Origin: Mobula hypostoma
Taxonomy: Eukaryota
Assembly (NCBI RefSeq): GCF_963921235.1
Contig: NC_086097.1
Location: forward strand, 27,902,001 to 27,966,000
Direction of reading: 5' to 3'
DNA: 64,000 nucleotides
A model generated the notes under the pieces. The model was given only the letters and a program-made list of their open reading frames with translations. It was not told the origin of the DNA and did no database searches. Shown in pieces: positions 3,299-63,900 of this stretch. The position numbers and the translations under genes were made by a program. Each line of letters opens with the position of its first letter. Position 1 is the first letter of the stretch.

Positions 3299-3436
3299 TT
3301 CACCAGTCCTGCCGAAGGGTTTCGGCCCGAAATGTCGACTGTACTTTTTTTCCATAGATGCTGCCTGGCCTGCAGAGTTCCCGCAGCATTTTGTGTGTGT
3401 TGCTCAGACTTCCAGCATCTTCAGATTTTCTCGTTT
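3299..3436 (+). mobile_element. 138-bp Penelope-terminus-derived insertion carrying a hammerhead motif
   Basis: 16-bp TSD ATAAAGGGAGCCTTTT (3283-3298, 3437-3452); homologous to the PLE terminus at 41510-41650. Confidence 0.85.
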
Positions 3437-5162: not shown

Positions 5163-5246
5163 CTTATCATGTCCTGCATCACCTCCTTGCACAATTTCAG
5201 GAGCCATGTATTCTATGGTTCCACAAAAAGAGTATGCTCGCTCATT
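5163..5246 (-). CDS. RPS6KA5: Internal coding exon (84 bp, phase 0/0) of ribosomal protein S6 kinase alpha-5 / MSK1, N-terminal kinase activation loop
   Basis: Minus strand reads tttttttaaacctatAG|AATGAG...GATAAG|GTatgt and translates to NERAYSFCGTIEYMAPEIVQGGDAGHDK. From memory, human MSK1 has TERAYSFCGTIEYMAPDIVRGGDSGHDK, whereas MSK2 has RTFSFCG...SKTGHGK. Canonical splice sites on both sides. Confidence 0.93.
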
Positions 5247-19486: not shown

Positions 19487-21340
19487 AACACACACAAAAT
19501 GCTGGAGGTCAGGAAGCATCTATGGTAATGAATAAACAGTGACATTGCAAGCCAAGACCCTTCTTCACAACTGAGAAGGAAGGAGGAAGATGCCAGAATA
19601 AATAGGTGGGGGGAAAGGGAAGCAGGCCATCTGGAAGGTGGTAAGTGAAGCCAGGTGGGTGGGAAAGGTCAAGGACTGGAGAAGTAGGAATCTGATATAG
19701 GAGTGGCCCATAGGAGAAAGGGAAGGAGGGGGGACCTGGGGGGGGGAGAGTAATAAGCAGGTGAGAAGATGTGAAAGGCCAGAGTGAAGAATAGAGGAAG
19801 GGAGAGGGGAAATGTTTTACCTGAAGGAGAAATCAATGCTCACGCCACCAAGTTGGAGGCTACCCAGACGGAATACAAGGTGTTGCTCCTTCACCCCAAG
19901 GGTGGCCTCCTCTTGGCACAAGAGGAGAACATGGACCAACATGTCGTAATGGGAATGGGTTTGGGAATGAAAATGTTTGGCCACCAGGAAGTTCCGCTTG
20001 TGATGGATTGTGTGGGGGTGCTTGACGATGCTGTACTCCAATTTATGATGGGTCTCATCAATGTAGAGGCTGCAGCGGGAGCACTAGACACAGAAGACTA
20101 CCTCAGCAGATTCACAAGTTAGGTGATGCTTCACCTCAAAGGACTGTTTGGTGCCCTGAATGGAGGTGAGGAAGGTGTCTGAGCAGGTGTAGCACTTGGG
20201 CTTGCAGCGATATGTGCTGGGAAGGAGATAGTAGGGAATTCATATCCTCATACCTTGATTCCATACTACGAGGGGTGATTGATAAGTTTGTGGCCTAGGG
20301 TAGAAGGAGTCAATTTTAGAAAACCTAGCACACTTATTTTTCAACATAGTCGCCTCCTACATTTACACACTTAGTCCAGTGGTCGTGGAGCATTCGGATC
20401 TTGGACCTCCAGAAAGTGTCCACAGCAGGGGTGATTGATAAGCTCGTGGCCTAAGGTAGAAGGAGATGAGTTATTAACTTCAAACTTTCTGCATAATCAC
20501 TCAAAGAGTTGAACTGTATGTGCATGTAACGAGAGCTGTATAACTCATCTCCTTCTACCTTAGGCCACGAACTTATCAATCACCCCTGCTGTGGACACTT
20601 TCTGGAGGTCCAAGATCCGTATGCTCCACGACCGCTGGCTTAAGTGTGTAAATGTAGGAGGGGACTATGTTGAAAAATAAATGTGCTAGGTTTTCTAAAA
20701 CTGACTCCTTTTACCTTAGACCACAAACTTATCAATCACCCCTCGTACATCCCTTGTTTCATTCACTTTCCATCTACATCTATGATACTTCTCCCACCCT
20801 CGATATCCTTAGTAACTTTCAATTCCCTAGTCCTGAATGCCTCTTCACCATGGATGTTCAGTCCCTATATACTTTTAACCTCCATCAAGGCCTCAAAGCT
20901 CTCTGCTTCTTTCTTGACAAAATAACCAACCAATTCCCCTCCACCACCACCATTCTCTGGCACGACTGGTGCTCACTCTCAATAAGTTTTCCTTTGCCTC
21001 CTCACACTTTCTCCAAACTCAAAGGGTAGCCATGGGCACATGCATGGGCCCCAGCAAGCCTGCCTCTTCATTGGTTATGTAGAACAGTCCAGGTTCGAAG
21101 CCTTCCCCGGGAACAGCATTTTTACAAGAGACAAGGTGGGAAGAGGTATAGCCGAGCCAACCCTGGGAATTAGAAGGTTTATAAAAAGATGATAGTGATC
21201 ATTTGTCTCTAGAGATGGTACGTGGACAGAAAAGGATTTGAAGGTTATCGACAAATGCATGGAAATGGAATGGGGGGGGAGGTGAATTTGAGGGCAGGGT
21301 GGAAGTTAGAGGCAAAGTTGACAAAGTGGACCAGTCTCCA
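19487..21340. mobile_element. Rearranged Penelope-like element (minus terminus/GIY-YIG 19487-20240, plus RT 20241-21110, minus RT 21115-21340)
   Basis: KEQHLVFRLGSLQ on minus; PLE RT motif FTMDVQSLYT on plus; FASNFHPALKFT on minus. Confidence 0.75.
20269..20745. mobile_element. Mariner-type MITE with 206-bp inverted arms
   Basis: TA|CGAGGGGTGATTGATAAG...CTTATCAATCACCCCTCG|TA; arms 20269-20474 and 20540-20745. Confidence 0.92.
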
Positions 21341-22164: not shown

Positions 22165-23899
22165 TATACAGATCAGTTCATCACAACAGTGGATTGAGTT
22201 AGTACAAGGTAAAACAATAACAATACAGAATAAAGTGTTATAGTTCAAAGAAAGGGCAGTACAAGTAGACAATAAGGTTTAAGGCCTAAATGAGGTAAAT
22301 TGAGGTCAAGAGTGACATATACAAAATGCTGGAAGAACTCTGGATGTTTATTCCTTTCCATAAATGCTTCTATATTTTGGACTGTGCCCCTTCATCAGGA
22401 CTGGACAGGAAGGTGGAAGAAGTCAGAAGAAGAAAGTGGGGGGAGGAGAAGGAGTACAAGTTTCAAGGTGAAATGTGAAATCAGGTGGGGGGATGAGGGG
22501 GTAATGAAATAAATTAGGAGGTGAGAGGTGGAAAAGGTAAAGGGCTGAAGAAGAAGCAAATTTTCTTGGTGAGTGTTTTAGAAGAACATATGGGGGGAGG
22601 TGTCAGAAGTATTTTTTTAAAAATAGTGTTAGATGCATGAAACTCACTGCCAGAGGTAGTGGTAGAGGCAGGTACATTATGGACATTTAAAAACTCCAGA
22701 TAAGCACATGGATGATTGAAAAATAGAGGTTATTTTTGGAGAGAAGAGTTAGATTGATTGTAGAGCGAGTTAAAAGTCATTGTGGGTCAAAGGGCCTCTA
22801 CTGTAATGTAATGTTCTATTTTCTAAATCCGAGTAATTAGGAGTTGAGTTTAAATGAACTTCTTAAAAACTGTTCTTCTGTGATACCATTAATTTAAATC
22901 AAAAGATATGCAATGCATTTAGTGGACTAGAGTGTTTCTCTTCTTGAATCTCCACTCTGTTCGCAGATTAGATGCCATACCAAGTTAACGATTGGATCAG
23001 CCTCAGATATACATCTACATGACTCAGTGTGGCTTGCAGAAAACAATTTTCACAGCTAAGCATTATGAAGATAAATTTTACTAAAGCTGAGATATGAAAT
23101 TTAGCTTCCTAATTAACTGATCTTTCTATTTATATTTTATTAGTTATCTAGTCTTTAAAGGCTAATTCATTTCCAGTTGTTTGAGCTAATTACAAAAGTT
23201 AATACTAGAGCTCCTCATGAATTTAATTTCATTGAAGTGTATGCACTTTTTAAAATGTATAAAACCTGTTAATGCTTGTTCACTTCAAGTGAAAGAACCA
23301 CTGGCTTTCTTATAACAACTTCATTGAGCTATTCTTGATGTGCCCTTCATGCAAAGACTTTGAAAACTCTTCCATCCTATTGTTAGAATAAAACGTGTAA
23401 TTTAAGTTACAGTCAATCTCCGACCAGTTTTGGCTGAAAAATGTGGCCTATTTGGATGTAGGTCACTCTTAAAAATAAACACATCATCCACTGATACTTA
23501 AGTAGGTTTCTAATCTGTGCCATCCCTGCCAAATATATCTACATTATTTTAAGTATTTTCTTAAGTTAGCTTCTGAACACCTCCTCAATTTAAGTCATTC
23601 CATTTTCCTTTAGACTATTTATTGACCCTCCTCATGGAGATTGCTGAAGCTATCAGTTCCTCAGCTGTCATTCCCTGACCACACTTTTGCACTTCTCCTA
23701 AGCAATGTACTAAGAGCTAGAGGAACTCAGCAGCCAGGCAGCAACTATGGAGGGAAATAGACAGTTGAAATTTCAGGACGAGACTCTTCACTAGGGCATC
23801 TTTTGCTCATTTGCTCTTCTAATTGTGTCTGATAATCCACCTTTGAATGATAATCCATCTTTGAAGGGTTTACAGAAGTCTTGCTAAATTAAAGATATA

Positions 23900-27096: not shown

Positions 27097-27199
27097 GGCA
27101 ACACATACAAAATGCTGGTGGAATGCAGCAGGCCAGGCAGCATCTATAGGAAGAAGTACAGTCGACATTTCGGGTCGAGACCCTTCGTCAGGACTAACG
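27097..27199 (-). mobile_element. 103-bp Penelope-terminus insertion carrying a hammerhead motif
   Basis: TSD GTTTCA (27091-27096, 27200-27205); absent from the left arm of the fold-back. Confidence 0.88.
27160..27195 (-). ncRNA. Minimal type-I hammerhead ribozyme motif
   Basis: AGUC-CUGACGA-A-GGGUC uc GACCC-GAAA-UGUC-GACU. Confidence 0.75.
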
Positions 27200-28119: not shown

Positions 28120-28430
28120 AAGTAAGTATGTGCCCTCATAAAAGCCATTTCCACACTGGGGAAAAAAGACTCTGGCTGTCCACTCAATCTATGCTTCTTA
28201 TCATTTCGTAAGATCTCTATCAAGACACCTTTCATCCTGCTTTGCTCCAAAGAGAAAAGCCCTAGCTTGCTCAATTTATCCTCGTAAGTCTTGCTCTCTA
28301 ATTCAGGCAACATTCTGATAAATCTCCTCTGCATTCCCTCTAAAGCTTCCACAGCCTTCCAATAATGAGGTGACCAGAGCTGAACACAATACTCCAACGA
28401 TAGTCTAACTTGAGTTTTACAGAGCTGTAA
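28120..28430 (-). mobile_element. CR1 3' ORF2 fragment
   Basis: LEYCVQLWSPHYWKAVEALEGMQRRF. Confidence 0.8.
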
Positions 28431-35460: not shown

Positions 35461-38172
35461 CAGAGAAATGGAAATGTGAATAGGCAGTTAGTGCAGAGCA
35501 CCCCTACGCTCAATAATAAGTATACTGCTTTGGATACAGTTATGGGGGATGACCTCCCAGGGGAACGCCACAGAGACCAGGTTACTGGGACTGAGTATGG
35601 ATCTGTGGTGCAGAAGGGAAAGAGGAAAAAGAGGGGAGTGGCAATAATAGGGGACTCAATAGTCAGAGGAACAGATAGGAGATTCTGTGGACGTGAACTG
35701 GACACCTGAAAGGTACATTGCCTCCCAGGTGCCAGGGTCAGAGACGTCTCCGATCATGTCCACAACATTTTAGAGAGGGAGGGAGAGCAGCCAGATATCT
35801 TGGCACATATTGGTACCAACGCATAGGAAGGAAAAACAAAGAGGTTCTGAAAAGAGAATTTAGAGAGCTAGGTAGAAAGCAGAGAAGCAGGACCTCCAGG
35901 CTACTAATTTCTGGATTGCTGCCTGTGCCACGTGCCAATGACGGCAGAAACTGGATGATTTGGCAGATTAATGTGTGGTTGAGCTGCTGGTGCAGGGGGA
36001 CCAGCTGCAAGTTCATGGATCTCTTTTGGAGGAGGTATGACCTGTTCAAAAGTGACAGGTTGCACCTGAACCTGAGGAGGACGAATATTCTCATGGGCGG
36101 GTTTGTTAGAGCTGTTGGGGAACATTTAAACAAATCTGGCAGGGGGCGGGAACTGGAGAGCATGGACATAGGATAGGATGGATGGTAAAAAAGTAAAGAT
36201 AGCATGCAATCAGACTGTCAGGAAGGGCAGGCAGGTGATGGGACTTAGTTGCAGCCAACAGGCGGAGTATCAAAGGATTAGGGATGCAGGATCAGAAAGG
36301 ATAGCAAATACGGTACTCAAGGGGTTGTATCTAAATGCGCATAGTATAAGAAATAAGGTGGATGATCTTGTTGCAATATTACAGATTGCCAGATATGATG
36401 TTGTGGCCATCACTGATACGTGGCTGAAAGATGGTTGTAGTTGGGAGCTGAATGTCCAAGGTTACAAGTTGTATTGGAGGGACAGGAAGGTAGGCAGAAA
36501 GGGTGGCATGGGGCTGCTGGTAAAGAATGGCATCAAATCAGTAGAAAGATGTGACATAGGATCAGAAGTTGTTGAGCCCTTGTGAGTTGAGTTAAGAAAC
36601 TGGAAGGATAAAAAGACCCTGATGGCAATTACATACAGGCCTCCCAACAGCAGCTGGGATGTGGACCACAAATTACAACTGGAAATAGAAAAGGCACGTC
36701 AAAAGTGCAACATTATGATAGTTATGGGATATTTCAACATGCAGGTCAATTGGGAAAAATCAGGTTGGTAATGGATTTCAAGAGAATGAGTTTTTCAAAT
36801 GCCTACAAGATTACTTTTTAGAGCAGCTTGTCATGGAGCCTGCTTGAGGATCAGCTATACTGGATTGGGTGTAATGCAATAAACCAGAGGTGATTAAGCA
36901 GCTTAAGGTAAAAGAACCCTTGGGAGGTAATGATCACGATATGATTGAGTTCAACTTGAAGTGTAGATAAAGTGAAGTCTGATGTAGCAGTACTTCAGTG
37001 GAGTAAAGGAAATTACAATGGTATGAGAGAGGAGTTGGCCAAAGTAAGTTGGAGGGAGATGCTGGCAGGAATGAAAGCAAAGTAGAAATGGTGAGAGTTT
37101 CTGGGAAAAATGAGGAGGGTGCAGGATGGATATATTCCAAAAAACAAAGAAATACTCAAATGGCAAAATACTACAACCATAGCTGACAAGTAAGCTAATT
37201 TAAAAGCACAAGAGAGGGCATACAACAGAAAATTAGTGGGAGGCAGAGGATTAGGAAGCTTTTAAAAACCTACAGAGGGCAAGTAAAAGAATCATTGGAA
37301 GGGAAAAAGATGAAATATGAAAGCAAGCAAGCTAGCAAACAACATCAAAGTGGATAGTAAAAGCTTTTGCAGTATGTAAAAGAGATGAGTGGATATAGGA
37401 TCGCTAGAAACTGAGGCCAGAGAAACAATACAGGAGAGAAGGAGATGGCAGGTGAACTAAATGAGTACCAGAGGACTGGAAAATTGCAAATGTCACTCCA
37501 ATCTTTAAGAAAGAAAGAAAGAAAACAGCAGAAAGGAAATTATAAACCAGTTAGCTTGACCTCGGTGGTTGGGAAGATGTTGAAGTCAATTGTTAAGGAG
37601 GAGGTTATTAAATACTTGGTGACACAGGACAAGATAGGACAAAGTCAGCATAGTTTCCTCAAGGAAAAATCTTACCTGATGATTGTTGGAATTCTTTGAG
37701 AAGATTACACACAGGATAGATAAAAGAGTGTAGTGGATGTTGTATATTTGGACCTTCAAAGGCTTTTGACAAGGTGCCACACATGAGGCTGCTTACCAAG
37801 TTAAGAGCACATGGTATTACAGGAAATTTATGGCATGGTTACAGTATTGCTGATTGGTAGCAGGCAGTGAATGGGAATAAAAGGATCCTTTTCTGGTTGG
37901 CTGTCAGTGACTAGTGGTGTTCCACAGGGGTCGGTGTTGGGACCACTTTTTTTATGCTATATATCAATGATTTAGATGAAGGAACAGATGGCTTTGCTGC
38001 CAAGTTTGGAGAGGATACAAAGGCGGGTGGAGGGCAGGTAGCGTTGAGGAAATAGGTAGGTTGCAGAACAACTTAAACAGATTAGTGGAATGAGAAAGAA
38101 AGTGGCAAATGAAATACAATGTTGGAAAATGCATGGTATGCACTTTGGAAGAAGAAATAAATGTGCAGACTA

Positions 38173-39674
38173 CAGGTGTCCCCCGCTTTTCAAACGTTCG
38201 CTTTACGAAACCTCACTCTTACGAAAGACCTACATTAGTTACCTGTTTTCGCTAACAGAAGGTGTTTTCACTGTTACGAAAAAAGGCAGCGCGCGAGAAA
38301 AAAAGCAGCGCACTCCCCCGGATTCAGAACTGCATTCTAGCCGGCATTGCTTAAACACGTGCCTGTGAGCAGCCATTTGCAAGATGAGTTCTAAGGTATC
38401 AGAAAAGCCTGAAAGAGCTCGTAAGGGTGTTACACTTAGCATAAAACTAGACATAATTAAGCCTTTTGATCGTGGTGAACGAAGCAAGGACAAAGTGAGC
38501 TTGGCTTGTGGAAGTTGACGAAGATGATGTTGAAGAGGCTTTGGCATCTCATGACCAAGAACTGATAGATGAAGAGCTGATGCAATTGGATTAGGAAAGG
38601 ATAACAATCGAAACTGAATGCAGTAGTGAATGGACCGAAAGTGAAGTCGTCCAGGAACTGAACGTGAAGCAACTGCGTGAGATTTTCGCTGCAATGATAA
38701 AGTACGACTTTAATTTTGAAATGGTACGTTGGTTTAGGGCATATTTGCAGGATGGTTTGAGTGCTTACAAAGAACTGTATGATCTAAAAATGCACGAGGC
38801 TAAGCAGTCAAGCAAGCCTTCCACATCAGCCACAGCAGACGATGAACCTCGACCTTCGACATCGAGGCAGGCAGACATAGAAGATGACCTGTGTGCCCTG
38901 ATGGAAACAGACGACGAGATGACACCCCAGTGTCCTACCACCCCAACCGCCGGGCCGCAGACATATACCGATCCGCGAAGGATGCAGCGGTGGCTGGGAC
39001 GTACCCAGCACATCTTTAAGAAAAATGCCGAAATAAACAAGCTAATTAATTACGTGCCAGGCGGCACCTAATTAATAATTAGCTTGTTTGTTTCGGCTTT
39101 TTTATTAAAGATGTGCTGGGTGCGTCCCGGCTGCCGCTATACCGCTGCATGCTTCGCGGATCGGTATCGGTTCGCTGCCTGGAGGTTGGGGACCACAGGA
39201 CCACCCCAACCTCTGACGACTCAGCCTAACACACCATCATCAGTGTGCTTTGCATTGTCTTCCCAATTCCGGTAAGTGATACTACACTGTACATACATTA
39301 TTTCTACTTTATATCAGCTGTATATTTTTACATGTTATTTGGTATGATTTGGCAGCTTCATAGCTTAAAGGTTACTGGAGAGCGCTTGGGTGAGATTTTC
39401 GCTACGGAGAACAGTGCGACAATGATTATGGAAAAGTATTTCTACTTTATATAGGCTGTGTATTCATCATATCATTCCTGCTTTTACTATATGTTACTGT
39501 TATTTTAGGTTTTATGTGTTATTTGGTATGATTTGGTAGGGTATTTTTGGGTCTGCGAACGCTCACAAATTTTTCCCATATAAATTAATGGTAATTGCTT
39601 CTTCGTTTTATGACATTCCTGCTTACGAACCGTTTCATAGGAACGCTCTACGTTCGGATGGCGGGGGAAACCTG
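38173..39674 (+). mobile_element. Tigger/pogo-type internally deleted DNA transposon
   Basis: TA|CAGGTGTCCCCCGC...GCGGGGGAAACCTG|TA; N-terminus MSSKVSEKPERARKGVTLSIKLDIIK joined to C-terminal remnants. Confidence 0.9.
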
Positions 39675-40946: not shown

Positions 40947-41655
40947 TAGACATGTCAGAATGGGAATGGGATGTGGAATTAAAACGTGTGGCCACTGGGA
41001 GATCGTTTTGCTGAACACCTACGCTCTGTCTGCCAGAGAAAGCAGGATCTCCCAGTGGCCACACATTTTAATTCCACATCCCATTCCCATTCTGACATGG
41101 CTATCCATGACCTCCTCTACTGTAAAGATGAAGCCACACTCAGGTTGGAGGAACAACACCTTATATTCCGTCTGGGTAGCCTCCAACCTGATGGCATGAA
41201 CATCGACTTCTCTAACTTCCGCTAATGCCCCACCTCCCCGTTGTACTCCATCCGTTATTTATTTTTATACACACATTCTTTCTCTCACTCTCCTTTTTCT
41301 CCCTCTGTCCCTCTGACTATACCCCTTGCCCATCCTCTGGGTTCCCCCCCCCGTCTTTCTCCCCAGACCTCCTGTCCCATGATCCTCTCATATCCCCTTT
41401 GCCAATCACCTGTCCAGCTCTTGGCTCTATCCCTCCCCCTCCTGTCTTCTCCTATCATTTTGAATCTCCCCCTCCCCCTCCTCTTTCAAATCTCTTACTA
41501 ACTCTTCCTTCAGTTAGTCCTGACGAAGAGTCTCGGCCTGAAACGTCGACTGTACCTCTTCCTAGAGATGCTGCCTGGCCTGCTGCGTTCACCAGCAACT
41601 TTGATGTGTGTTGCTTGAATTTCCAGCATCTGCAGAATTCCTGTTGTTTGCGTTT
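40947..41655 (+). mobile_element. Penelope-like element 3' part (GIY-YIG end plus terminus) with inverted 5' segment
   Basis: EHLRSVCQRKQDLPVATHFN...DFSNFR; pyrimidine tract; hammerhead motif. Confidence 0.88.
41516..41551 (+). ncRNA. Minimal type-I hammerhead ribozyme motif (stem II has a mismatch)
   Basis: AGUC-CUGACGA-AGAGUCUCGGCCU-GAAAC-GUC-GACU. Confidence 0.7.
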
Positions 41656-43975: not shown

Positions 43976-46900
43976 CGTAATTGTTGCTTCAGTTAGCGGC
44001 TTAATATAGGGGATGATAAGCATCCGGCCCGGCCAAACTTAAGAAATCTCGTTTGGGTGGATACTGTGCGATGTGTCCCCTGTTACAAATCAGTACCACA
44101 AAATAACAAACAGTACACAATATGCAATTAAATGATTGAGCTTTATAATTCTTAACTTGACTGTACAGTTAGAGAGAATAAAAAAAGATGAAGGGCCCAT
44201 TCTCATGAAACAGTCTAATGCGCAACGTTGGAGCTCACTGATAGGGCCGCTCGTCCACCATCGACCTCCTCCAATCGTCGCTGACCTTCAGGCCCTCGCT
44301 CCAAGTCCACTCTGTCCGAGGTCTACCAACTCTCTCCATTCATGTCTGCTCTCCTCATCTCTCCCCGGCAAAAAGACTGCGAATTCCCGGCTCCCAGACA
44401 CAGAAGAAAGAACAACATCCCACTCATTGGCTAGCATGCCCCGTAATCTCTAGTGATAACCCAAACATTGCTGCTACAGAGAAACCATTACCTCAGCAGT
44501 GGAACATTACAGAGAAGCCATTACATTAGCAGTGAAACCTTACAGCATGTTACATTCTCCCCCACCGAATTCAGTCATGTCCTCATGACGTTGGGATAAT
44601 TCACCAAACCCTTCCTGCAAAACACAAAGTCTAATCCAGCTGCACAAGGCAGTGACATAGCTCCCCAAAATGGTAGGGGACACATTCTGCTCCCCTGGTG
44701 CTACATAGGCCAGCGTATCTGGTGGTCTCCTAATTCTCTGAGACCTCCGCACCCCCTCACCTAACTCTTCAGGTTCAGACACTACTGGGGATACTTCTGG
44801 TCTACCTGGCAAGGCCTCTTCTGACCTATCACTCATGCCCACCTACAACTCGGACTCCTCTGTCCCATGGCCAAGCCCTACTTCCTCCCCTGCAGAGTCC
44901 CGCTGCAACCCAGGCTGCCCACAGATAGCCCACCCCAATGTCACCTGACTCAGTGGGAGAAGGGCTGGGAATCTCTTCCTCAATCAATGGGGAGTTAGCG
45001 AAAGGCGGCATATACCACACATCCAGGTCTTCATCCTCCGAATCAGTATCCCTCTCAGGGGTGCGAACCCTGCAGTCGCCCCACGTTTCCACAGAGTCCT
45101 CTTATTAGGTGTAGGCTCCCAAGTTTGGCTCTGAGTCTACCTGCACCTCTTGTCCCAGGGGCAGCAGAAGGTTCTGATGGAGATTCTTGACAGGCCCATT
45201 CACATCCTCTGGTTTCACCCAGAAAACTGGTAGGTTTGGCATCTGACTCTCCACCACATAGGGCATAGCCACCCAGCAGTCAGCCAACTTATGCTTTCCA
45301 GGTAGCTCCAAATTCCTTATGAGGACTCGGTCTCCCGGCAGGAGTTGGGAGAACCTCACCTTTTGATCGTACCTCCTCTTATTTCCTTGATTCTGCTTGG
45401 CAGCCGCGACCCCTGCTAACTCATAAGCCCCTTTCAGCTCTCTTCTCATATCAGACACATAAAATCTTTGGCAGCAAGTCACTCTCGTCAGTCCCAAGCC
45501 AAAGGTTAATGGGCAACCTCGCCTCGCGCCCAAGTATCAAATAATATGTCGAATACCCAGTAGCTTCATTTCATGTACAGTTGTAACTGTGAACCAGATG
45601 CCCAATATATTGACTCCACTTGCTCTTCTTGCTGATCTCCAGGGTCCCGAGCACGTCTAGCAAGGTCGGAATAAACCTCTCTGGCTGGGGATCACCCTGT
45701 GTGTGACAGAGCATGGTCCTCGACTTCTTGACTCCAAGTATGCCCAGAAATTCATGGATGAGTCTGCTCTCGAAATCCCATCCCTGATCACTATGTATCC
45801 ACCTGGGAAGGCCATAATAGATGGAATACTTCTCCCATAACACTTTTGCCACTGTAGACGCCCTCTGGTCTTTGGTAGAAAAAGCCTGAGCATATCTGGT
45901 ATAGTGGTCCGTGATGACTAAGACATTCACTGTGTTGCTGGCATTTGGTTCTATTGACAGGAAATCCATACACACCAGGTCTAGAGGCCCCACACTCTGC
46001 AAGTGGAACAAGGGTGCTACCTGCGTGGGCAGTGTCTTCTGCTGTATGCATCGAATGCATGAGTTGCAGTAGTCTTTGACCTCCGATTTCATCCGGGGCC
46101 GGTAAAACCGGTCTGAGCAATCCATAGGTCTTTTCCACCTCCAAATGTCCAACTCATCATGAAGTGATTTCAACACAATCCTCCGATACTTTTTGGGCAG
46201 AACCAGCTGGCAATGCCGGGGTTGGTCTGGAGGTGACGTGTCTCAGTATAAGATCTGGTTCTTCAACTCCAACCGAGGCCATTTTTGCAGTAATGGAGAC
46301 ACCAACACACATTTTGTCTTCATCGCCTGAGCCAGGTCTCCCTTTTCGACCACTGCCCAAATGCTCCCAATGCCCAGATCATCTCACTGAGCAGCTGCCA
46401 CTTCCCCAGAACTCAATTCCGGCAGCTGATTTGTCTTCAGAACAGTCAGGTTATAGTAAACTTGGAGAATGGCATCGTCAGAAGCTCCCAATTGATCCAT
46501 CGCTCGACCCTGCCCCTCCTTTCCCTCTGCCTTCATGGTGATGGCAAACTGACACATGGTCTTTACCCCTGGGGCAGGAACGCTCTCCAACTCCTCATCC
46601 TTGACTAGTCCCTCATGCACCCGTCGGGATAAAGCATCAACATCAATGTTCCTGCTTCCTGGCCGGTACTTCAGGCTGAAATCATAGGCAGACAACGCTG
46701 CCAACCACCGATGGCCTGTGGCATCCAGTTGCGCCGAGGTCAGGATACAAGTTGGGGGGTTGTTGTCCGTCCTCATGTCAAACTTGGCCCCATAGAGGTA
46801 GTCACTCAGCATATCAACCATCGTTTATTTCAACACCAGAAATACCAACTGGTGCATGGGATAGGTTTTCTCGGAGGGTGACAGACTCCAGCTGACAAAC

Positions 46901-49900
46901 ACAACCTGGTGCCCTGATCCTGATACAGGACGCCCCCTAAACTCTCTCGGCTGGCATCCATGTGCAGTACATATGGCAATCGGGGGGTCTGCAAAAGCCA
47001 GTACCGGCGCCTGGGTCAGCAGCCCCTTCAGCGACTGAATGGCCTCTTCACATTTTGCATCTCGCCTCGGTCCAAAGGGCTCCGAGGGGCTAAGATACTC
47101 TCCACCTTCCTGTCCTTCTTTCCCCCTCCTTGTCTTCCCCAAGGGACGGTAACCACACAGGAGCTGGTTCAACAGGTGACTCACTTTCACGTAGCCTTTC
47201 ATGAACCTCCGGTAGCAACCACAGAATCCAAGGAATGAGCAGAGCGCTCACAGTCCGAGGTCTTGGCCACGTGGTGACCGCCTCTATCTTAGCTGGATCT
47301 GTAGCTACTCCATCCCATGAGACTAGGTGTCCAACATAGCTAACAGACATTTGGCAGAACTGGCATTTGTCCAGGGAAAGTTTTAACCCTTCAGCATTCA
47401 GGCAGCCTAGCACCTTCAACAGCCTCACTTCATGTTCTTCCAAGGTGGATCCAAATACGACGAGGTCATCCAGATATACCAACACCTCAGGCAAGTTCAT
47501 ATCCCCCACCGTCTTCTCCATGACCCGCTGGAAGGTTGCAGGAGCTTCCAAGATGCCCTGGGGCATCCTTTTAAACTGGAAAAAAAATCAGAGGGGACAT
47601 ATAAATGCCGCTTTCTCTTTGTCAACCTCACTCATGGGGATCTGGTAATATCCACTCCTCAAGTTCACCACACTGAACCACCCCACACCACTCAGGCAGG
47701 CCAGCGTGTCGTCAATCCTCAGGAAAGTATACTGGTCAGGGATGGTGCGCCTGTTCAGAGTCCTAAAGTCCACAAACATCCATACCTTCCCATTCTTCTT
47801 TCGGGCTACTACTATAAGGGACGCATAGGGGCTTCAGGACTCAGTGATAATCCCAGATTCCTTCAACTTACACAAATGCTGCTGAATGTCCTCCACCTCC
47901 GTAGGGGCCAGTCGCCATGACCATTCTCTGAATGGGGTATCCTCAGTCACCCGGATAGTGTGACGTGTGCTCTTGGAACAACCCACGTCAAACTCATCAG
48001 TGGAGAAGAAATCTTCCAGCTTCAACATCTCTCTACTAGCCCCCTCTTCCAACCCGCAGGAACAGGGGAGTCCCCGAAGTTGAATGGCTTGTCTCATAGG
48101 GACACTAAACATTACCATCATCAGGAACAAATGCGCCAGGGGCATCCCCCGCTTGAAGGTGACCTCCCTCCGTCTAGTGTTCCTGGCAATCACTGCCATC
48201 CTGTTTACTAGGGGCTTCTGCAATTCCGGCTTCACCAGTAACACAGCAGGAAATCCCAACTCCCCCTCAAGGTCTTCCGGAGCGTCCACTAAGATGGCCT
48301 CGCCCTCAGGCGCTCTGGGAAATTTGGGTGACCCCATCACTCTTGCTACTTCCCTGGGCCATACTACCATTGGCTTCAATTCGGTGAACCCACACAGTCC
48401 CGCATCTAAATTCGGTATCCGGCCTAATGCAGCCACGCACTTCCTCAAAAGCAGCTCGGAACACTGGCTGCACGGACAATGTTCCCAGAAAGCTCTCATC
48501 AGCCTTCTCCTTGCAGGCCCTCATGAGCCTCCTCACAAGAGGGGGGCTGGTCCCCACCGGAACTGAAACCCCACTCTTCTCAACAGGGTCCGCACAAACC
48601 AGCACCAATGTATCAAGGACCTCAGACACTGCCACATTGCCCTCCGAGAACTCCAACTTCACTGACAAATAACCATCATATGGATAATCACTAGCTCTAA
48701 GTCCACAGATCTCTAATGCCCTGAAAGGGGTCAAGGGTAAATGCTTCAGATACCGGTTGAAAAATTAATGGTACAACAATGTGACCTGCGACCCGGTGCC
48801 AAGTATGGCTTTAGCATAAATACCCTTTATCCATAGCGACACACTGAAGTATCGTCCCACTAAGCCTTCAGGAATTGGGCCCTTCACTTTTGGAGGTTCC
48901 TTAGTACATTGCTAGAAATGTGTTCCCCCAGCGACACCAAGCCGTTTCCTCACTGGGTCTCCTCTAAGTTTTTCCAACAACTCTCCCTGCTTAGGTACTT
49001 GGGGGCTCACTCTCCTTCTGGCGTGACACCTGCTGCCAGCAGCCCTCCGCCTTGTTCATCCCCTTGGGGGATCTGCCCCCCCCCAGTCAGCTCCATCATA
49101 TGGGGGGGGGCGTCCACACCCGCTGATAACAGCCAACATATCTCTGTTTTTAACTTTGCCACAATTTCCTCCACCGCTCCTCGGGGCAGGTTATCCTTGG
49201 TCACTTCACCGCAGGGGACCACTACTGAGGACTGTACCCTGCTGACGGAGGCCTCCCACACCTCCAACGCGTTCTCCTTTTCCTGTACCTCTCTGATCAA
49301 CTCAACCAAGATGGAGGGGGGCGCGTCTTACGAGACTGTCGGAAACCCAAGCAATCAGGTCATGAGGCTGGGCACCCCTGACTATCTGGTCCATTCTTAA
49401 CTGATCCACTTCAGCTGCCTGAATGACCCTCTGTGCTGCAAGCAATTTAGCTGACTCTCCAGCTAAAATATAAAAGCAAAAAGCTTCTCCCCCTTCTCCT
49501 AACGCATGTTCTGAAACCCCACCATGAGCTCCATTGGGCTTCCTGTCGGGCCAAAAGCATTGTCCAGTGTTTGCGTTTAATTGACAGCTGTCGCTACGCG
49601 ACACATTAACCCGACGGCTCTCACAACGTCAGCAGTCCGCCCATTCAAACTTCCAACCAATTTCTTCGCTTTATGTCATCAGAGCACTGCTATTCATCTA
49701 ACAACTGAGAGGTGTGCTCCGCCCATACCTCATACTCCTCTTCCCCTTTCGGGGTGGGCGTAATTCCAGAGAATAGGCGGCGCCTACCATAGCTGGGAGG
49801 TTGAACCTGATTTTTCCATTTATTCGCCAGAGAGGTAAGGGTGGATACTAACCCAGAATTCTCACTCTCCCCTGGGGGACACGGGGTAATTAGACATTCC

Positions 49901-50748: not shown

Positions 50749-51712
50749 GCTACAAAAGCATTTCTAAAATCCTGAGTGATCATCAGTCCACAGTAAGAGA
50801 AATTGTCTACAGATAGAGAAAACTCAGTACGGTTGCTACTCTCCCGAGGAGTGGGTATCCTGCAAAGGTCACACCAAAAGCACAACATGCCATGCTGAAG
50901 GAGGTGAAAAAAAACCCAAGGGCAACAGCAAAAAACCTGCAGAAATTTCGAGAAGTTGCTAAAGTCTCTGTTAATGTGTTCACTAAAAGAAAGACTCTGA
51001 ACAAGAATGGTGTTCCTGGAAGGACACCATGGAAGAAACCACTGCTGCATGTCTCAAGTTTGCAACAGACCACCTGGATGTTCTATGATGCTTCTGGAAC
51101 AATGTTCTGTGGATAGAGAGACAAAAGATGAACTTTTTGGCAGAAATGGACATTGCAATGTTTGAAAGAAAATAGGCACTGCACACCAATACCAAAACCA
51201 CATCCCAACTGTGAAGCACGGTAGAAGCATCATGGTTTGGGGGTTGCTTCACTACCTCAAGCCCTAGACAGTTTGAAATCATTGAGGGAACAATGAATTC
51301 AAAACCGTATCAAGACATATTACAGGAGAATGTCAGGGTAGCAGTCCATCACCTGAAGCTTCATAGAAATTGGATAATGCAACAAGACAATGATCTGAAA
51401 GTCAAGAGTAAATCAATACCAGAATGGTTTAAAAAGAAGAACATTCCTGTTTTGAAATGGCCAAGTCAAAGTCTTAACCTTAATCAAATAGAAATGTCAT
51501 GGAAGGACCTGAAGCAATCAGTTTATGCAAGGCAGCCACCCAATATCCCAGAGTTGATACAGTTTTGTAAGGAGGTATGGACTAAGATTCCACCAAGCCG
51601 ATATGCAGCACTGATCAACAGTTCCCAGAAACTTTTGGCTGAAGTTATTGCTGTACAAGGGGGTCACACCAGTTACTGAAAGCAAAGGCTCACATACTTT
51701 TCCAACAAATAC

Positions 51713-53688
51713 TTAAAAACATAGAAAAACTACAGCACAATACAGGCTCTTCGGCCCACAATGCTGTACGGAACATCTACAGTGGCATGCAAAAGTTTGC
51801 GCACCTCTGGTCAAAATTTCTGTTACTGTGAATAGCTAAGCAAGTAAAAGATGACCTGATTTCCAAAAGGCATAAAGTTAAAGTTGACACATTTCTTTAA
51901 TATTTTAAGCAAGATTACTTTTTTTATTTCCATCTTTTACAGTTTCAAAATAACAAAAAAGGAAAAGGGCCCAAGGCAAAGGTCTGGGCACCCTGCATGG
52001 TCAGTACTTACTTAACACCCCCTTTAGCAAGTATCACAGCTTGTAAACACTTTCTGTAGCCAGCTAAGAGTCTTTCGGTTCTTGTTTGGGGAATTTTCAC
52101 CCATTCTTCCTTGCAAAAGGCTTCTAGTTCTGTGAGATTCTTGGGCCGTATTGCATGCACTGCTCTTTTGAGGTCTATCCACAGATTTTCAATGCTGTTC
52201 AGGTCGGGGGACTGTGAGGGCCATGGCAAAACCTTCAGCTTGCGCCTCTTGAAGTATTCCATTGTGGATTTTGAGGTGCGTTTAGGATCATTATCCTGTT
52301 GTAGAAGCCATCCTTTTTTCATCTTCAGCTTTTTTTTTTAAACAGACGGTGTGATGTTTGCTTCCAGAATTTGCTGGTATTTAATTGAATTCATTCTTCC
52401 CTCTACTAGTGAAATGTTCCCCGTGCCACTGGCTGCAACACAAGCCCAAAGCATGATCGATCCACCCTCGTGCTTAACAGTTAGAGAGGTGTTCTCTTCA
52501 TGAAATTCTGCACCCTTTTTTCTCCAAACATACCTTTGCTCATTTGCAACCAAAAACGTTCTATTTTAACTTCATCAGTCCACAGGACTTGTTTCCCAAA
52601 TGCATCAGGCTTGTTTAGATGCTCCTTTGCAAACTTCTGATGCTGAATTTTGTGGTGAGGACGCAGGAAAGGATTTCTTCTGATGACTCTTCCATGAAGG
52701 TCATATTTGTGCGGGTGTTGCTGCACAGTAGAACAGTGCACCACCACTCCAGAGTCTGCTAAATCTTCCTGAAGGTCTTTTGCAGTCAAACCGGGTTTTG
52801 ATTTACCTTTCTAGCATTCCTACCAGCAATTCTCTTGGAAAGTTTTCTTGGTCTTCCAGACCTCAACTTGACCTCCATCTTTCCTGTTAACTGTCATTTC
52901 TTAATTACATTACGAATTGAGGAAACAGCTACCTGAAAACGCCTTGTTATCTTCTCAGAGCCTTCTCCTGCTTTGTGGGCATCATTTATTTTAATTTTCA
53001 GAGTGCTAGGCAGCTGCTTAGAGGAGCCCATGGCTGCTGATTGTTGGGACAAGGGTTGAGGAGTCAGGGTACTTGTAAAGCTTTGAAAGTTGCATCACCT
53101 GGCCTTTCCTAACGATGACTGCGAACAAGCCATAGCCCTAACAAGCTAATTAAGGTCTGAGGCCTTGGTAAAAATTATCTGACAGCTCAAATCTCTTGGG
53201 GTGCCCAAACTTTTGCATGGTGTTTCTTTCTTTTTTTTTCACTCTAAAATTGTACAAAACAAAAATAATATACTAATCTTGCTTAAAATGTTGTAAAGAA
53301 TGTTTCATCTTTAACTTTAGGACTTCTGGAGATCAGTTCATCTTCTACTCACTTAACTATTCACAGTAACAGAAATTTTGACCAGGGGTGCCCAAACTTT
53401 TGCATGCCACTATATTACTTTAGAAATTACCTAGGGTTACCCATAGCCCTCTATTTTTCTAAGCTATCCAGGAGTTCTTACAAGACCCTATCGTATCCAC
53501 CTCCACCCCCATCGCCAGCAGCCCATTCCACGCACTCACCACTCCCTGTGTAAAAAATTTACCCCTGACATCTCCTCTGTTCCTGCTTCCAAGCACCTTA
53601 AAACTGTGCCCTCTCGTGATAGTCATTTCAGCCCTGGGAAAAAGTCTCTGACTATCCACATGATCAATGCTTCTTGTAATATTGTAAA
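51713..53688 (-). mobile_element. CR1 3' fragment inserted in the Tc1-A right TIR and itself split by Tc1-B
   Basis: Tail at 51713-51779 continues at 53413-53688 (DSQRLFPRAEM...TRGHSFKV). Confidence 0.82.
51780..53412 (-). mobile_element. Tc1 element B, full length (1633 bp), IR/DR type; transposase pseudogene 53031-52008
   Basis: TA|CAGTGGCATGCAAAAGTTTG and CAAACTTTTGCATGCCACTA|TA; ATG at 53031 (MGSSKQL); VLWTDE, QQDNDPK, SPDLNSIENLW; stops and frameshifts. Confidence 0.93.
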
Positions 53689-54029
53689 ATGTAATATTGG
53701 CTAATTTTTCTCAATAAGTATAATTTTTTTTAGTTATTTTACTTACTTGGGTACTCTTAACTATTTAGGACTTGTGTCAAGACCTGATCACATTTTAATT
53801 CATAGCTGTGTTGAAATAGAGAAAATTCTACAGCATTCACAAACTTTCTTGCACCACTGTAAGCTGCCATCTTCAAGGATCTTTGGACTTGTACTCCAAG
53901 ATCCCTGGTTATCACAACTGTATCATTCATGGTATACAACCGAGCCTCATGAGTACTCCTAAATGCCCCTGGGAGCATGGGAGTATTTATTTTCCAATCC
54001 TGAAGGCTCTCAGTCTGAAACATCAACTC

Positions 54030-55947: not shown

Positions 55948-57052
55948 ATGCAACATACATCAAAGTTGCTGGTAAACGCAGCAGGCCAAGCAGCATCTAT
56001 AGGAAGAGGCGCAGTCGACGTTTCAGGCCGAGACCCTTCGTCAGGACTAACTGAAGGAAGAATGAGTAAAGGATTTGAAAGCTGGAGGGGGAGGGGGAGA
56101 TGCAAAATGATAGGAGAAGACAGGAGGGGGAGGGATAGAGGAGAAGACAGGAGGGGGAGGGATAGAGCCGAGAGCTGGACAGGTGATAGGCAAAAGGGGA
56201 TACGAGAGGATCACGGGACAGGAGGTCCGGGAAGAAAGACGGGGGGGGGGGTGACCCAGAGGATGGGCAAGAGGTATATTCAGAGGGACAGAGGGAGAAA
56301 AAGGAGAGTGAGAGAAAGAATGTGTGCATAAAAATGAGTAACAGCTGGGGTACGAGGGAGAGGTGGGGCCTAGCGGAAGTTAGAGAAGTCAATGTTCATG
56401 CCATCAGGTTGGAGGCTACCCAGACGGAATATAAGGTGTTGTTCCTCCAACCTGAGTGTGGCTTCATCTTTACAGTAGAGGAGGCCATAGATAGACATGT
56501 CAGAATGGGAATGGGATGTGGAATTAAAATGTGTGGCCACTGGGAGATCCTGCTTTCTCTGGCGGACAGAGCGTAGATGTTCAGCAAAGCGGTCTCCCAG
56601 ACTGCGTCGGGTCTCACCAATATATAAAAGGCCACATCGGGAGCACCGGACGCAGTATATCACCCCAGTCGACTCACAGGTGAAGTGATGCCTCACCTGG
56701 AAGGACTGTTTGGGGCCCTGAATGGTGGTAAGGGAGGAAGTGTAAGGGCATGTGTAGCACTTGTTCCGCTTACACGGATAAGTGCCAGGAGGGAGATCAG
56801 TGGGGAGGGATGGGGGGGGACGAATGGATAAGGGAGTTGTGTAGGGAGCGATCCCTGCGGAATGCAGAGGGGGGGGGGGAGGGAAAGATGTGCTTAGTGG
56901 TGGGATCCCGTTGGAGGTGGCGGAAGTTACGGAGAATAATATGTTGGACCCGGAGGCTGGTGGGGTGGTAGGTGAGGACCAGGGGAACCTTATTCCTAGT
57001 GGGGTGGTGGGAGGATGGAGTGAGAGCAGATGTACGTGAAATGGAGGAGATG
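55948..57052 (-). mobile_element. Penelope-like element 3' part: RT C-terminal region, open GIY-YIG domain, terminus
   Basis: VPLVLTYHP; FTCESTGVIYCVRCSRCGLLYIGETRRSLGDRFAEH. Confidence 0.92.
56013..56048 (-). ncRNA. Minimal type-I hammerhead ribozyme motif (intact core)
   Basis: AGUC-CUGACGA-AGGGUCUCGGCCU-GAAAC-GUC-GACU. Confidence 0.8.
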
Positions 57053-57312
57053 AAATGGATTAGTAAGATTATGGTTTGAAGCATGCACAGCAAACAGAAA
57101 AACCATCATCTAACTGCAGACCAGAAAAAAAATATTCATTACCGTGTAAACACCAGTGCAGTTTGCATACAAGATGGCATATGCACGTCTATAATATAAA
57201 AAGAAAATGCTGGGGTAGAAACTCAACAGATCAGGCAGTATTTATGGAAAGGAAAAAGAGGGGAGAACCCATCATCAGAACTAGAACATTAATCCAAGAT
57301 GTTAACTGATTA

Positions 57313-58863
57313 ATGGATAAGTCCCCGGGGCCTGATGGAATATTTCCCACGCTGCTCCACGAGGCGAGGGAAGAGATTGCTGAGCCTCTGGCTAGGATCT
57401 TTATGTCCTCGTTGTCCATGGGAATGGTACCGGAGGACTGGAGAGAGGTAGATGTTGTCCTCTTGTTCAAAAAAGGTAGTAGGGATAGTCCGTGTAATTA
57501 TAGACCACTGAGCCTTATGTCTGTGGTGGGAAAGCTGTTCGAAAAGAATCTTAGAGATAGGATCTCTGGGCATTTAGAGAATCATGGTCTGATCAGGGAC
57601 AGTCAGCATGGCTTTGTGAAGGGCAGATCATGTCTAACAAGCCTGATAGAGTTCTTTGAGGAGGTGACCAGGCATATAGATGAGGGTAGCGCAGTGGATG
57701 TGATCTACATGGATTTTAGTAAGGAATTTGACAAGTTTCCACACGGTAGGCTTATTCAGAAAGTCAGAAGGCATGGGATCCAGGGAAATTTGGCCAGGTG
57801 AATTCAGAATTGGCTTGCCCGCAGAAGGCAGAGGGTCGTGGTGGAGGGAGTACATTCAGATTGGAGGGTTGTGACTAGTGGTGTCCCACAAGGATCGGTT
57901 CTGGGACCTCTACTTTTCATGATTTTTATTAACGACCTGGACTTGGGGGTAGAAGGGTGGGTTGGCAAGTTTGCAGACGACACAAAGGTTGGTGGTGTTG
58001 TAGATAGTGTAGAGGATTGTCGAAGATTGCAGAGAGACATTGATAGGATGCAGAAGTGGGCTGAGAAGTGGCAGATAGAGTTCAACCCGGAGAAGTGTGA
58101 GGTGGTACACTTTGGAAGGACAAACTCCAAGGCAGAGTACAAAGTAAATGGCAGGATACTTGGTAGTGTGGAGGAGCAGAAGGATCTGGGGGTATATGTC
58201 CACAGATCCCTGAAAGTTGCCTCACAGGTAGATAGGGTAGTTAAGAAAGCTTATAGGGTGTTAGCTTTCATAAGTCGAGGGACAGAGTTTAAGAGTCGTG
58301 AGGTAATGATGCAGCTCTATAAAACTCTGGTTAGGCCACACTTGGATTACTGTGTCCAGTTCTGGTCACCTCACTATAGGAAGGATGTGGAAGCATTGGA
58401 AAGGGTACAGAGGAGATTTACCAGGATGCTGCCTGGTTTAGAGAGTATGCATTATGATCAGAGATTAAGGGAGCTAGGGCTTTACTCTTTGGAAAGAAGG
58501 AGGATGAGAGGAGACATGATAGAGGTGTACAAGATAATAAGAGGAATAGATAGAGTGGATAGCCAGTGCCTCTTCCCCAGGGCACCACTGCTCAATACAA
58601 GAGGACATGGCTTTAAGGTAAGGGGTGGGAAGTTCAAGGGGGATATAACAGTAAGTTTTTTCACTCAGAGAGTGGTTGGTGCATGGAATGCACTGCCTGA
58701 GTCAGTGGTGGAGAAAGATACACTAGTGAAATTTAAGAAACTACTGGACACGTATATGGAGGAATTTAAGGTGGGGGGTTATATGGGAGGCAGGGTTTGA
58801 GGGTCGGCACAACATTGTGGGCCAACGGGCCTGTACTGTGCTGTACTATTCTATGTTCTATGA
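57313..58863 (+). mobile_element. Well-preserved 5'-truncated CR1 (RT frame with a single stop at 57799-57801)
   Basis: ORFs 57313-57801 and 57838-58800 are in one frame; KFADDTK; (TTCTATG)n tail. Confidence 0.95.
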
Positions 58864-60910: not shown

Positions 60911-63900
60911 TGCTATAGCATATAAAGTTAAACAAAAATACATAAAAAGATAAATTAGAATACAAGATGTACTCGTGTCAGACCAAAAGAGTAGGAATTC
61001 AGTGAAATGGGCCCTCAACAATGCTCTAGATCATCTCCTCAGCTCCACCTAGTTCCCTGTTCCCCAAAACCTTTGAATCCCATTTAAACTAAAAGACTAG
61101 CTATCTAAAGGCAAAACGCAAGGCACTGCAGGTGCCAGAAACTGAAATAGCTTTAGTTCATGGTAGACATCGACAACCACTTGCTTTTGGTACTGCTTGA
61201 GTTGCAGCTGTATCATCCCATATGGTTTCTCCAGTTTTCTCTTCAGAAAAAAATACTCCCTCAAATCTACAAGATATACAGTACCGTAATCCAAAATTCA
61301 AAAATGCCCGATTCTATTTTGCCTTCTCTAAAATTAACACTAGTGCTGCAGTGCTAATAGTTAACTATGTGATTGGTATGTAAAGGCAATTCTGGTTAGC
61401 TAGCAAAGAATAATATGCTGTTGCCCAGATATTTACCTCTGCTTGCAATGGTTAACATGTGTGAAGGGTCACGTATCATGACGTTGCCACTTTCAGCAGG
61501 GCAGATACTAAAAGGTCCCAATTTTTTGCTAATACAAATGTTTGTTAATAGCAACATCAACAAACTGTTTCTCTCCACACAGAGGGCAGAATGGTCCTGT
61601 AGCAGTTAGCACGTCACCTTACAGCACCAGTGATCACCAAATTAGGTTCAACTCACACCGCTGTAGATTTGTACATTCTCCCTGTGACCATGTGGTTTCC
61701 TCTAGGTGCTCTGTGTCCTCTTACGTTCTAAAGATGTATGGGTTAAGGTTAAGAGGTTGTGGGCATGCTATGCTGGTGCAGGAAGCATGGTGACACTTGC
61801 AGGCTGCCCCCAGCACATTTTCAGACTGTGTTGGTCATTGACACAAAATGACATACTTCACTGTATGTTTCAATATACCTGTACATGTGACAAATAAAAA
61901 TAAAAAAATGCTGCTCGACCCATGGAGAACCCACAGCAGATTGTTTATTGCTCAATTCTAGCATTTTCAATCTCTTACTGCTCAATATTCAACAGTATTT
62001 TTGCAACAAGTCTTTACAGTGCATTAGGTGTCCACATTGAAATTTACTGGTGCCCCAGATTTTCTGGAGATAAGGAAACTAGCCTAGAGTCAGAATACTG
62101 ACAATAATGACTAATTTACCACTCTCTCAGGAAAAGAAGATAGAGGGCTTTAAGCTTCTGGCTCCTACAGAAGTTCAGACTTTGCAAACTCTCTAAACTA
62201 CCAACTCCCCCCACTCACAATCTTCTAATTAAGCCTGACTGATCAAGGAAGAACTACAACATTGCCCAACCCTAACCCTCCCAACAATTGTTCTTTCTCC
62301 ACAGCCCTCTCATATAAGAACTTATAGTACCCCCACTTTCTTAATGAGCATCCCCACAATCCCAATCCACTTGATCATGCTAGGTCATCCATCTCACAAA
62401 GCCTGAGGCAAAGCTATAATGTATAAACAAAATTCTCAAAAGCACCAAGTGTTAAAAATAAAGAACGTTTTTATTCCCATGAGAATTTTTCTTAAGAAAT
62501 TTATCCCACATTTCAGTAGTACACTATTAATCACATGCATTACATGTATAGCTTATTACAACTTTGTATGGGAGAGTATCTGTCAATCATACAAACACAT
62601 TGGATTCAACACTACACAAATAAAAAGACTGCATGTACAAACTAATAATTTGACTATACTAATCCACTGAAAAGCACTTTTATTTTGAAGCAGAATATAG
62701 TGATAGTTCTAAATATTAAATTACTACATTATTGTATGCCTAATTCAATATTAACTAATAGTTCTTCTAATTAAAATATAGCTTACAGTTGTATCTAAAC
62801 TAGTTCATCACTCCTTGTAAAATATTAAAATGCACTTGTCGAATTTGATATTTAACAGTACAGTAACCAGATGCTCTTGTATATATACAATTTACATGTG
62901 GTAACAGTATTTACATAAACATGGACTGTCACTGGAAAAATAAATCTCACACCAGTTAATTTTATTTCTTCATGCACTCATGGCATGTGGGACATTATGG
63001 CAGAGCCAGGATTTATTCTTCAGTTCCAACTACCCTGGGAGTGAGTGCCTAACTGGGCCGTATCTAAAGGTCTGGAGATGCACATAGGTCAAACTAGGTA
63101 GGATGAAAACACACATGAAATACTGCAGCTCAGGTAGTATCAATGGAGAGGAGGTGCATTTTAGGCTTAGGCCCTTCATCAGGACTGAAAAAGAAGAGGG
63201 AAGAAGCCAGAATAAGTAGGTGGGGGAGAGGGGAAGGAGTTCAATCTAGGTGATAGGATGGAAAATTATCATTCCAAATGACAACAAAGAACAAGATGGG
63301 TTTCTCTACAACAATCCAGTCTTTAAAATGTCATCTTTGGTAACTTTTTCAGCATAAAGAACCTAACTCACCACCTGATGTGATAGAATTTTAGTGTTAC
63401 GCCTGTAGATTATTCCAGGGTTCAGGAATGCTCATTTATAACAAAGCATTACCATGTCTAACGCCATAGTCACCAAGCTGTCAGAGACTATATACAATTT
63501 CGTGGAGTTATGGAACACTGCTGCACAAACAGGCCTTTCAGACCATTTAGTACTGTTATTCTGCCTAGAGAGCATTGCCCCCTTTACCCCTGCTCTCCAT
63601 GTACTCATCCAAACTTCTCTTAAATGTTGAGATAGAACCCATATTCACTAATTATACATTCCACACCCACACCACCCTAACCTTAGCGTCTAGTTCTACC
63701 AGTCCTGCCAGACTGCAAGCACCATGCAGAATCATGAGTTCATACAACTCCTTCTCAATGTTCCTGCTGCTTGGCAGATTACTATTAGTCTTGAAACAGA
63801 AGCGATTTGAAAGAAGATTGATTCAGGTCGATTTTCTCGCTCTCCCACCACCTTGCTACCATATGCCCCAATGAAAAGCAGCGACTAATGTGGAATGGCT

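Follow-up and report, generated by a model that had tools for sequence, protein, structure and literature searches.

The closest described relatives of the motifs analysed here are the minimal hammerhead ribozymes (min-HHRs) located in the pseudo-LTRs (pLTRs) of metazoan Penelope-like elements (PLEs), including the fish elements Xena, Poseidon and Neptune (Cervera and De la Pena 2014, PMC4209133). As described there, the Schistosoma-type minimal hammerhead is inactive as a monomer and shows low activity as a dimer, the conserved G10.1-C11.1 pair is usual, not obligatory, and the intron of Drosophila Penelope ends at helix I. According to the published accounts, PLE relatives of this kind depend for cleavage on a tandem arrangement, a high Mg2+ concentration or the PLE protein (PMC4209133, PMC11167929); for instance, the hammerhead of an anole PLE is described as cutting only with the PLE protein, and the RNA-seq reads presented with it do not end at the site (PMC11167929). 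Partial tandems, inverted 5' pieces and an optional tail of 30-40 bp are reported as PLE features (PMC8557442, PMC11167929), and a CX2-5CxxC linker between the reverse transcriptase (RT) and the endonuclease is given as a feature of Neptune that is common to Nematis (PMC8557442). Engineered fast intronic hammerheads are reported to lower mRNA in zebrafish (PMC11856399), so that an effect of intronic hammerheads on a host gene is possible in principle.

The window, by which we mean the whole 64-kb stretch of Mobula hypostoma DNA that was analysed, carries several such motifs, two of which lie in the sense orientation within one intron of RPS6KA5. The original prediction was that these two could pair and cut the host pre-mRNA. 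The reading that we favour, with a probability of roughly 0.86, is that they are pLTR hammerheads of a very abundant Neptune-type PLE, left behind by truncated insertions, that they are likely inert passengers, and that cleavage of the host pre-mRNA by them is unlikely.

Minimal hammerhead motifs and their architecture

The motifs recognised in the window are as follows.

56013..56048, minus strand: minimal type-I hammerhead motif, core intact, helix III ACGU, sense to RPS6KA5
27160..27195, minus strand: second sense hammerhead motif, GAAAT variant, stem II perfect, core intact
41516..41551, plus strand: antisense copy, core intact, 3' tail present
3304..3341, plus strand: antisense copy in the next RPS6KA5 intron, CTGCCGA/GAAAT, a member of the older subfamily with A6C (CUGCNGA)
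19537..19572, minus strand: eroded copy, 24-26 of 36 matches
22367..22402, minus strand: eroded copy, recognisable in its 5' half only, 24-26 of 36 matches
23763..23798, minus strand: eroded copy, 24-26 of 36 matches
63151..63186, minus strand: eroded copy, 24-26 of 36 matches
53993..54028, plus strand: further eroded copy, absent from the original prediction, 23 of 36 matches

The sequence places the four motifs and the first four eroded copies where they had been predicted, and the expected cut between 56017 and 56016 was correctly assigned. A strict minimal-hammerhead descriptor matches the window twice and has no match in any of 200 dinucleotide-type shuffles, which confirms that the motifs stand far above chance. 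The Rfam covariance models, proposed earlier as a check, returned no hammerhead among 12 matches in the window at E values up to 5, these being chance microRNA-type hairpins only.

The copy at 56013 reads AGTC-CTGACGA-A-stem II-GAAA-CG-TC-GACT, and the copy at 41516 has the same pattern. The core CUGANGA / GAAA / UH is present at 56013, 27160 and 41516 and absent at 3305, where it bears A6C (this copy spans 3305-3340 on the plus strand and grows to 3304-3341 when a fifth stem-I pair is counted). The short helix I (AGUC/GACU) and the extra A before helix II, both typical of min-HHRs, are found in the window copies. The palindrome at 15.2-16.2 lacks a loop 3, so that helix III is indeed formable only between two copies. 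It had been described as ACGU, which holds at 56013 and 41516; at 27160 and 3305 it is a wobble-containing AUGU, at 27160 through a CpG-type transition, and the helix III of the sense pair would therefore contain a G.U wobble. Stem II is closed by G10.1-C11.1 at 27160 and 3305 and by G10.1.U11.1, in place of the conserved G-C, at 56013 and 41516. For the copy at 41516 the predicted location and core stand, but its stem II is broken by an A.C mismatch and it is antisense to the host gene.

The Penelope-like element that carries the motifs

The motif at 56013 belongs to a longer insertion, the parts of which are listed below.

55951..57052, minus strand: 5'-truncated young copy of a putative Neptune-type PLE, 1.1 kb, by identity to genomic copies
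56370..57059, minus strand: remnant of an ORF encoding a C-x4-C-xx-C linker and a GIY-YIG endonuclease (PF01541, E 8e-6, over the cut-off)
56049..56075, minus strand: pyrimidine tract immediately preceding stem I, with CAG-TT-AG at its end, resembling a 3' splice acceptor

This copy comprises the endonuclease end, a pyrimidine-rich pLTR, the hammerhead about 320 nt past the stop codon of the GIY-YIG ORF, and a short 3' end without a tail; read from 57052 to 55950, it shares 93-96% identity with 13 of 29 other genomic copies. The motif at 27160 lies within a solo fragment of about 100 bp (27103-27198). In a longer copy (L202, 3689-6586), a frame of 965 amino acids remains open and contains the RT, the C-x4-C-xx-C linker and GIY-YIG, with E values of 4.5e-5 for RVT_1 and 1e-3 for GIY-YIG, both below the Pfam cut-offs. 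Its sister copies are about 98% identical; the family is young and may still be capable of activity. Among 29 loci picked by the 5' part of the ORF, 20 have the same motif a short way ahead of the ORF, and one tandem repeats at 3,515 bp (L209/L210). Near-complete copies contain the motif twice on one strand at a spacing of about 3.5 kb, first in the repeat just before the RT-endonuclease ORF and again past the end of that frame. Inverted 5' pieces are frequent; of 36 3' ends of copies, 14 group at one position and 21 at a second about 35 nt away, which is the PLE tail signature. The linker and the vertebrate host together point to Neptune. The original placement of the motifs in Penelope termini is borne out, each of them being the 3' pLTR end of a PLE of this presumed type, with an ORF that combines RT and GIY-YIG endonuclease, and the evidence supports their identification as minimal type-I hammerheads in PLE pLTRs.

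A branch-point-like sequence, a pyrimidine tract and an AG before or inside stem I are seen at 56049-56075 (minus strand), at 41489-41515 (plus strand) and in most copies, in both the young and the old subfamilies. The tract is predicted to pair with the core, and splicing could alter folding. One hypothetical junction from the endonuclease end to the acceptor had no match in the genome, and a convincing splice donor was not seen in the young pLTR.

Two variants distinguish subfamilies of the element. C6 occurs in 18 of 67 old-type copies and in none of 57 young-type copies, and across the genome there are 421 A6C matches against 360 for A6G and A6T together, a modest excess. The first 20 A6C loci (L235-L254) include 13 with older-subfamily flanks by eye, while a script tagged 8 as old, 8 as young and 4 as unclear. 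A6C as a private mutation only was considered and rejected, given that 18 of 18 sampled A6C copies are old-type and 13 of 20 loci have older flanks. The CUGCCGA core at 3305 is thus a subfamily trait: an older subfamily spread with a weakened core. The second variant, at position 11.1, divides the 41 young copies examined into 19 with C and 22 with T, the U11.1 group being the less diverged. A6C is reported to lower Mg2+-dependent cleavage strongly in two other hammerheads (PMC7151607, PMC3088659), which keep some activity by the account in PMC7151607. The spread of A6C, combined with the presence of U11.1 in those young copies that have diverged less, suggests that strong catalysis is unneeded for the element to spread, and these subfamilies offer a natural experiment on whether PLE transposition needs ribozyme catalysis.

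Placement in RPS6KA5 and genomic abundance

The host gene was identified from its exons.

5163..5246, minus strand: the sole coding exon of RPS6KA5 (MSK1) detected in the window, with AG/GT borders

The best solved relative of this exon is RPS6KA5 (PDB 1vzo, E 5e-11), and a motif scan finds further exons in order within 100 kb on either side, with AG/GT borders checked for three. Because the preceding exon lies at 64589-64696, just beyond the window, everything from 5247 to the window end is a single intron of 59,342 nt in total (59.3 kb), which the copies at 56013 and 27160 share. RPS6KA5 is on the minus strand; these two copies are therefore sense, as predicted, with their cut sites 28,853 nt apart (28.9 kb), and those at 41516 and 3305 are antisense. 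Some 11 kb to the left of the window, another RPS6KA5 exon (L042) reads YELKTG, where the human kinase reads YELLTG; the difference could be a variant or an assembly error.

Contigs of 4 of 23 sequencing runs, whose RNA status is a guess, were compared with a near-complete element and with the DNA between the upstream exon and the 56013 motif; in both comparisons, matches to family copies overwhelmed the rest. Among the matches listed, two runs had contigs identical to unique sequence of the RPS6KA5 intron, and one 645-nt contig contains the upstream RPS6KA5 exon followed by other sequence. Such contigs are unable to reveal RNA ends.

The intact pattern has 49,365 exact matches in the genome (3.48 Gb), against none for a control. 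At this abundance, 0.42 sense copies are expected in a 59.3-kb intron and the probability of two or more is 0.067, so that finding a pair of sense copies there is nothing unusual. At least two structurally intact sense copies are present in 4 of 22 sampled genes besides RPS6KA5. Over 1.6 Mb the descriptor yielded 38 matches, all of a single lineage, and none in five shuffles.

Hammerhead copies arranged head to head as fold-back pairs were observed to the left of the window, at about 50.7-50.9 kb from its start (L046), and elsewhere in the genome; RNA transcribed across such a pair would fold into an extended duplex and hide the sense motif inside it. Another locus (L015) contains, near 2281 on the plus strand, a distinct hammerhead-like motif whose helix II is longer and which probably comes from another PLE family.

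Folding, decay and orientation of the inserted copies

Secondary-structure predictions favour inactive folds. In dimer models, the active double hammerhead reaches about -12 kcal/mol and the inactive dimer about -31, a gap of about 19 kcal/mol. The isolated solo motif is predicted to form an inactive rod in which the GACG of the core pairs with the CGUC of the cleavage site (P 0.98-1.0). Within its native context, the 27160 copy is predicted to be locked in the rod with a probability of 0.92, and stem II of the 56013 copy has a probability of 0.02, the upstream pyrimidine tract competing with it. Nearest-neighbour models underrate hammerhead cores, and folding is taken here as supporting, not decisive.

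The fate of the motif after insertion was followed in 41 young copies with an intact upstream flank, out of 229. Private non-CpG changes amount to 3/369 in the core, 7/574 in the stems and 18/1474 in the flank (p 0.78), and CpG decay affects 9/40 sites in helix III versus 11/41 in the flank; G12 is lost in 5 of 19 C11.1 copies. At the family level, these copies give no sign of purifying selection after insertion, the core decaying like the flank, and an excess conservation of core and stems over flanks, which the original prediction had named as its test, is not seen in these private changes. When all differences are counted, the non-CpG figures become 3/369 for the core versus 49/1756 for the flank; this count, which takes in subfamily-shared variants and drops the G12 column, favours core conservation and agrees with selection that acts on the master elements and not on copies once inserted. 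A6G or A6T is found in 360 genomic copies, which equals about 0.7% of the number of intact ones and agrees with neutral decay. The copies at 56013 and 27160 resemble ordinary family members.

Orientation and decay counts together address whether PLE hammerheads harm host transcripts, and such harm appears absent here. The sample comprised 1,599,170 bases inside 22 genes, with direction taken from ordered Pfam exon matches and the large receptor genes covered in part. Profile matches number 128 sense versus 122 antisense, copies detected by their 3' flank alone 118 versus 111 (p 0.69), core-intact copies 36 versus 30, structurally fully intact copies 20 versus 12 (p 0.22) and exact patterns 16 versus 10, with 11.4 expected per strand. 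No orientation count departs from parity, and there is no sense depletion across the 22 genes. The intact class is small (32 copies, sense share 95% interval 0.44-0.79), and this test is compatible with a mild effect or with a sense excess; it excludes just a strong effect. A control of CR1-like LINEs, at 57 to 46, has no antisense bias, so the orientation test may be insensitive in these genes; a gene annotation combined with the 49,000 copies would sharpen it greatly.

Mechanism and alternative explanations

On the reading that we favour, catalysis would belong to the element's own life cycle. A tandem transcript with two motifs on the same strand would be the natural setting for a double hammerhead, as the published relatives suggest (PMC4209133, PMC11167929), in which the two motifs would swap strands by forming stem I and the ACGU helix III between copies, and the element's own protein would probably assist the cleavage of the tandem RNA. 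The predicted cut falls after GUC, about 60 nt ahead of the first ATG of the ORF. Reverse transcription would start just 3' of the motif, and nearly every truncated insertion would consequently retain one solo motif, which is predicted either to adopt the inactive rod or to pair with its own upstream pyrimidine tract. Inserted copies then decay at the rate of their flanks, as the sampled copies do.

The original prediction can be stated as the pairing of the two sense copies across 28.9 kb of nascent intron and the cutting of RPS6KA5 pre-mRNA to a degree that affects expression, which, if true, would add a novel route by which transposons regulate genes of the host. Both copies are indeed sense and share an intron, their cores are intact and their stems I are compatible; dimers of the Schistosoma minimal hammerhead are reported to cut weakly in vitro (PMC4209133), cleavage in introns can reduce mRNA by the zebrafish account (PMC11856399), and RPS6KA5 as a whole holds five exact sense copies and one antisense copy. 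The proposal is not supported by copies elsewhere: the 22 genes are without sense depletion, core decay is neutral, and many long introns should show such an arrangement by chance. The heterodimer itself would combine a G.U in helix III with one partner that has G10.1.U11.1, and the inactive dimer is favoured by the folding gap given above. We regard this pairing as extremely improbable, though rare cleavage would be compatible with these results. A conditional version is very unlikely in our estimation: solo intronic copies would cut only when the PLE protein is present, as in germline or de-repressed cells, the protein refolding them and bringing partners in trans, including the element's own transcripts. 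It draws on the protein-assisted cleavage described for the anole PLE (PMC11167929), on the approximately 98% identical young copies and long open ORF of the family, and on the retention in solo copies of the region just 3' of the motif, in which genomic copies end and which is the presumed site of protein binding and RT start. Orientation is nevertheless unbiased, though a rare, tissue-limited effect would leave little trace, and the anole RNA-seq reads, as reported, never end at the cut (PMC11167929). Extended to the genome, the same idea would make the tens of thousands of locked intronic hammerheads a latent network, in which the element's protein unlocks sense copies, those in RPS6KA5 among them, and trans-assembled dimers cleave host pre-mRNAs; this would link transposon activity to transcriptome-wide RNA cutting, and we consider it highly improbable.

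A further possibility concerns the master elements only, and is compatible with our favoured explanation of the intronic copies. The motif could be non-working as a ribozyme even in active elements and be kept as a structure for protein binding or RT start. The older subfamily did spread with A6C, a change that is reported to lower Mg2+ cleavage in other hammerheads (PMC7151607, PMC3088659), and U11.1 is carried by the less diverged group of young copies; moreover, core mutants are described as leaving in vitro insertion unaffected, and Naiads as being without hammerheads (PMC11167929, PMC8557442). Against this, all invariant core bases are preserved across the roughly 49,000 copies of the currently dominant lineage, and A6C hammerheads are still somewhat active in the published assays (PMC7151607). 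We hold a lost ribozyme to be possible, though doubtful.

Other repeats in the window

Long hairpins at 12788-12877, 38993-39131 and 20392-20625 match microRNA models below the thresholds. The first two share sequence and presumably are miniature inverted-repeat elements. Broken ORFs at 45571-49400 (minus strand) resemble, in our judgement, the pol of an LTR retrotransposon, with integrase and RT motifs, and the stretches at 7126-8697, 13736-14212, 23942-24622, 28035-28523, 57310-58800, 34707-35753 and 51215-52565 we take to be LINE-like RT and Tc1-like transposase fragments.

Comparison with known systems

In the literature outside subscription journals, we found no paper that treats this family in cartilaginous fish or reports cleavage of host introns by PLE hammerheads; the family or a close one may appear in the supplementary alignments of PMC4209133 or in the supplement of bioRxiv 10.64898/2026.07.22.740005.

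Other known hammerheads resemble the window motifs in part. The amniote intronic hammerheads in RECK, C10orf118/CTCL and DTNB (PMC6155905) are likewise of type I and within a host intron, but are described as canonical, with tertiary contacts and a single locus kept across species, whereas those of the window are minimal, multi-copy and decaying. The RECK-type architecture, with a 6-bp helix I and tertiary contacts, is not found here, helix I being of 4-5 bp and the monomer having no helix III; the window motifs are not domesticated intronic hammerheads of that type. The non-LTR retrozymes (bioRxiv 10.64898/2026.07.22.740005) also are type-I, related to PLE pLTRs and present in non-mammalian vertebrates, yet they are short tandem units reported to be under-represented in introns, while the window copies are dispersed solo ends. 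A further relative is the hammerhead of the Anolis PAc element (Poseidon), which, as published, has a pLTR motif near the start of the ORF and two 3'-end clusters; its cut falls 26 nt inside the ORF, in contrast with the position upstream of the first ATG predicted here (PMC11167929), and the Neptune-type linker of our family is a second difference.

The best match is to the PLE min-HHRs as described in PMC4209133, with which the motifs have in common the type-I topology, the short helix I, the extra base between 9 and 10.1, the palindromic 15.2-16.2 without loop 3, the pLTR location, and an occurrence mostly as solo copies of truncated elements with some inverted pairs. Helix II has 4 bp here versus the 7-8 bp given for Schistosoma (PMC4209133), and, unlike the min-HHRs of that account, about half of the young copies have G10.1.U11.1 and an A6C subfamily is present. 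The roughly 49,000 exact copies compare with about 4,000 in coelacanth and about 9,000 in Xenopus by a different counting method (PMC4209133). Judged by the features tested, the family is an ordinary member of the class of PLE minimal hammerheads described in 2014.
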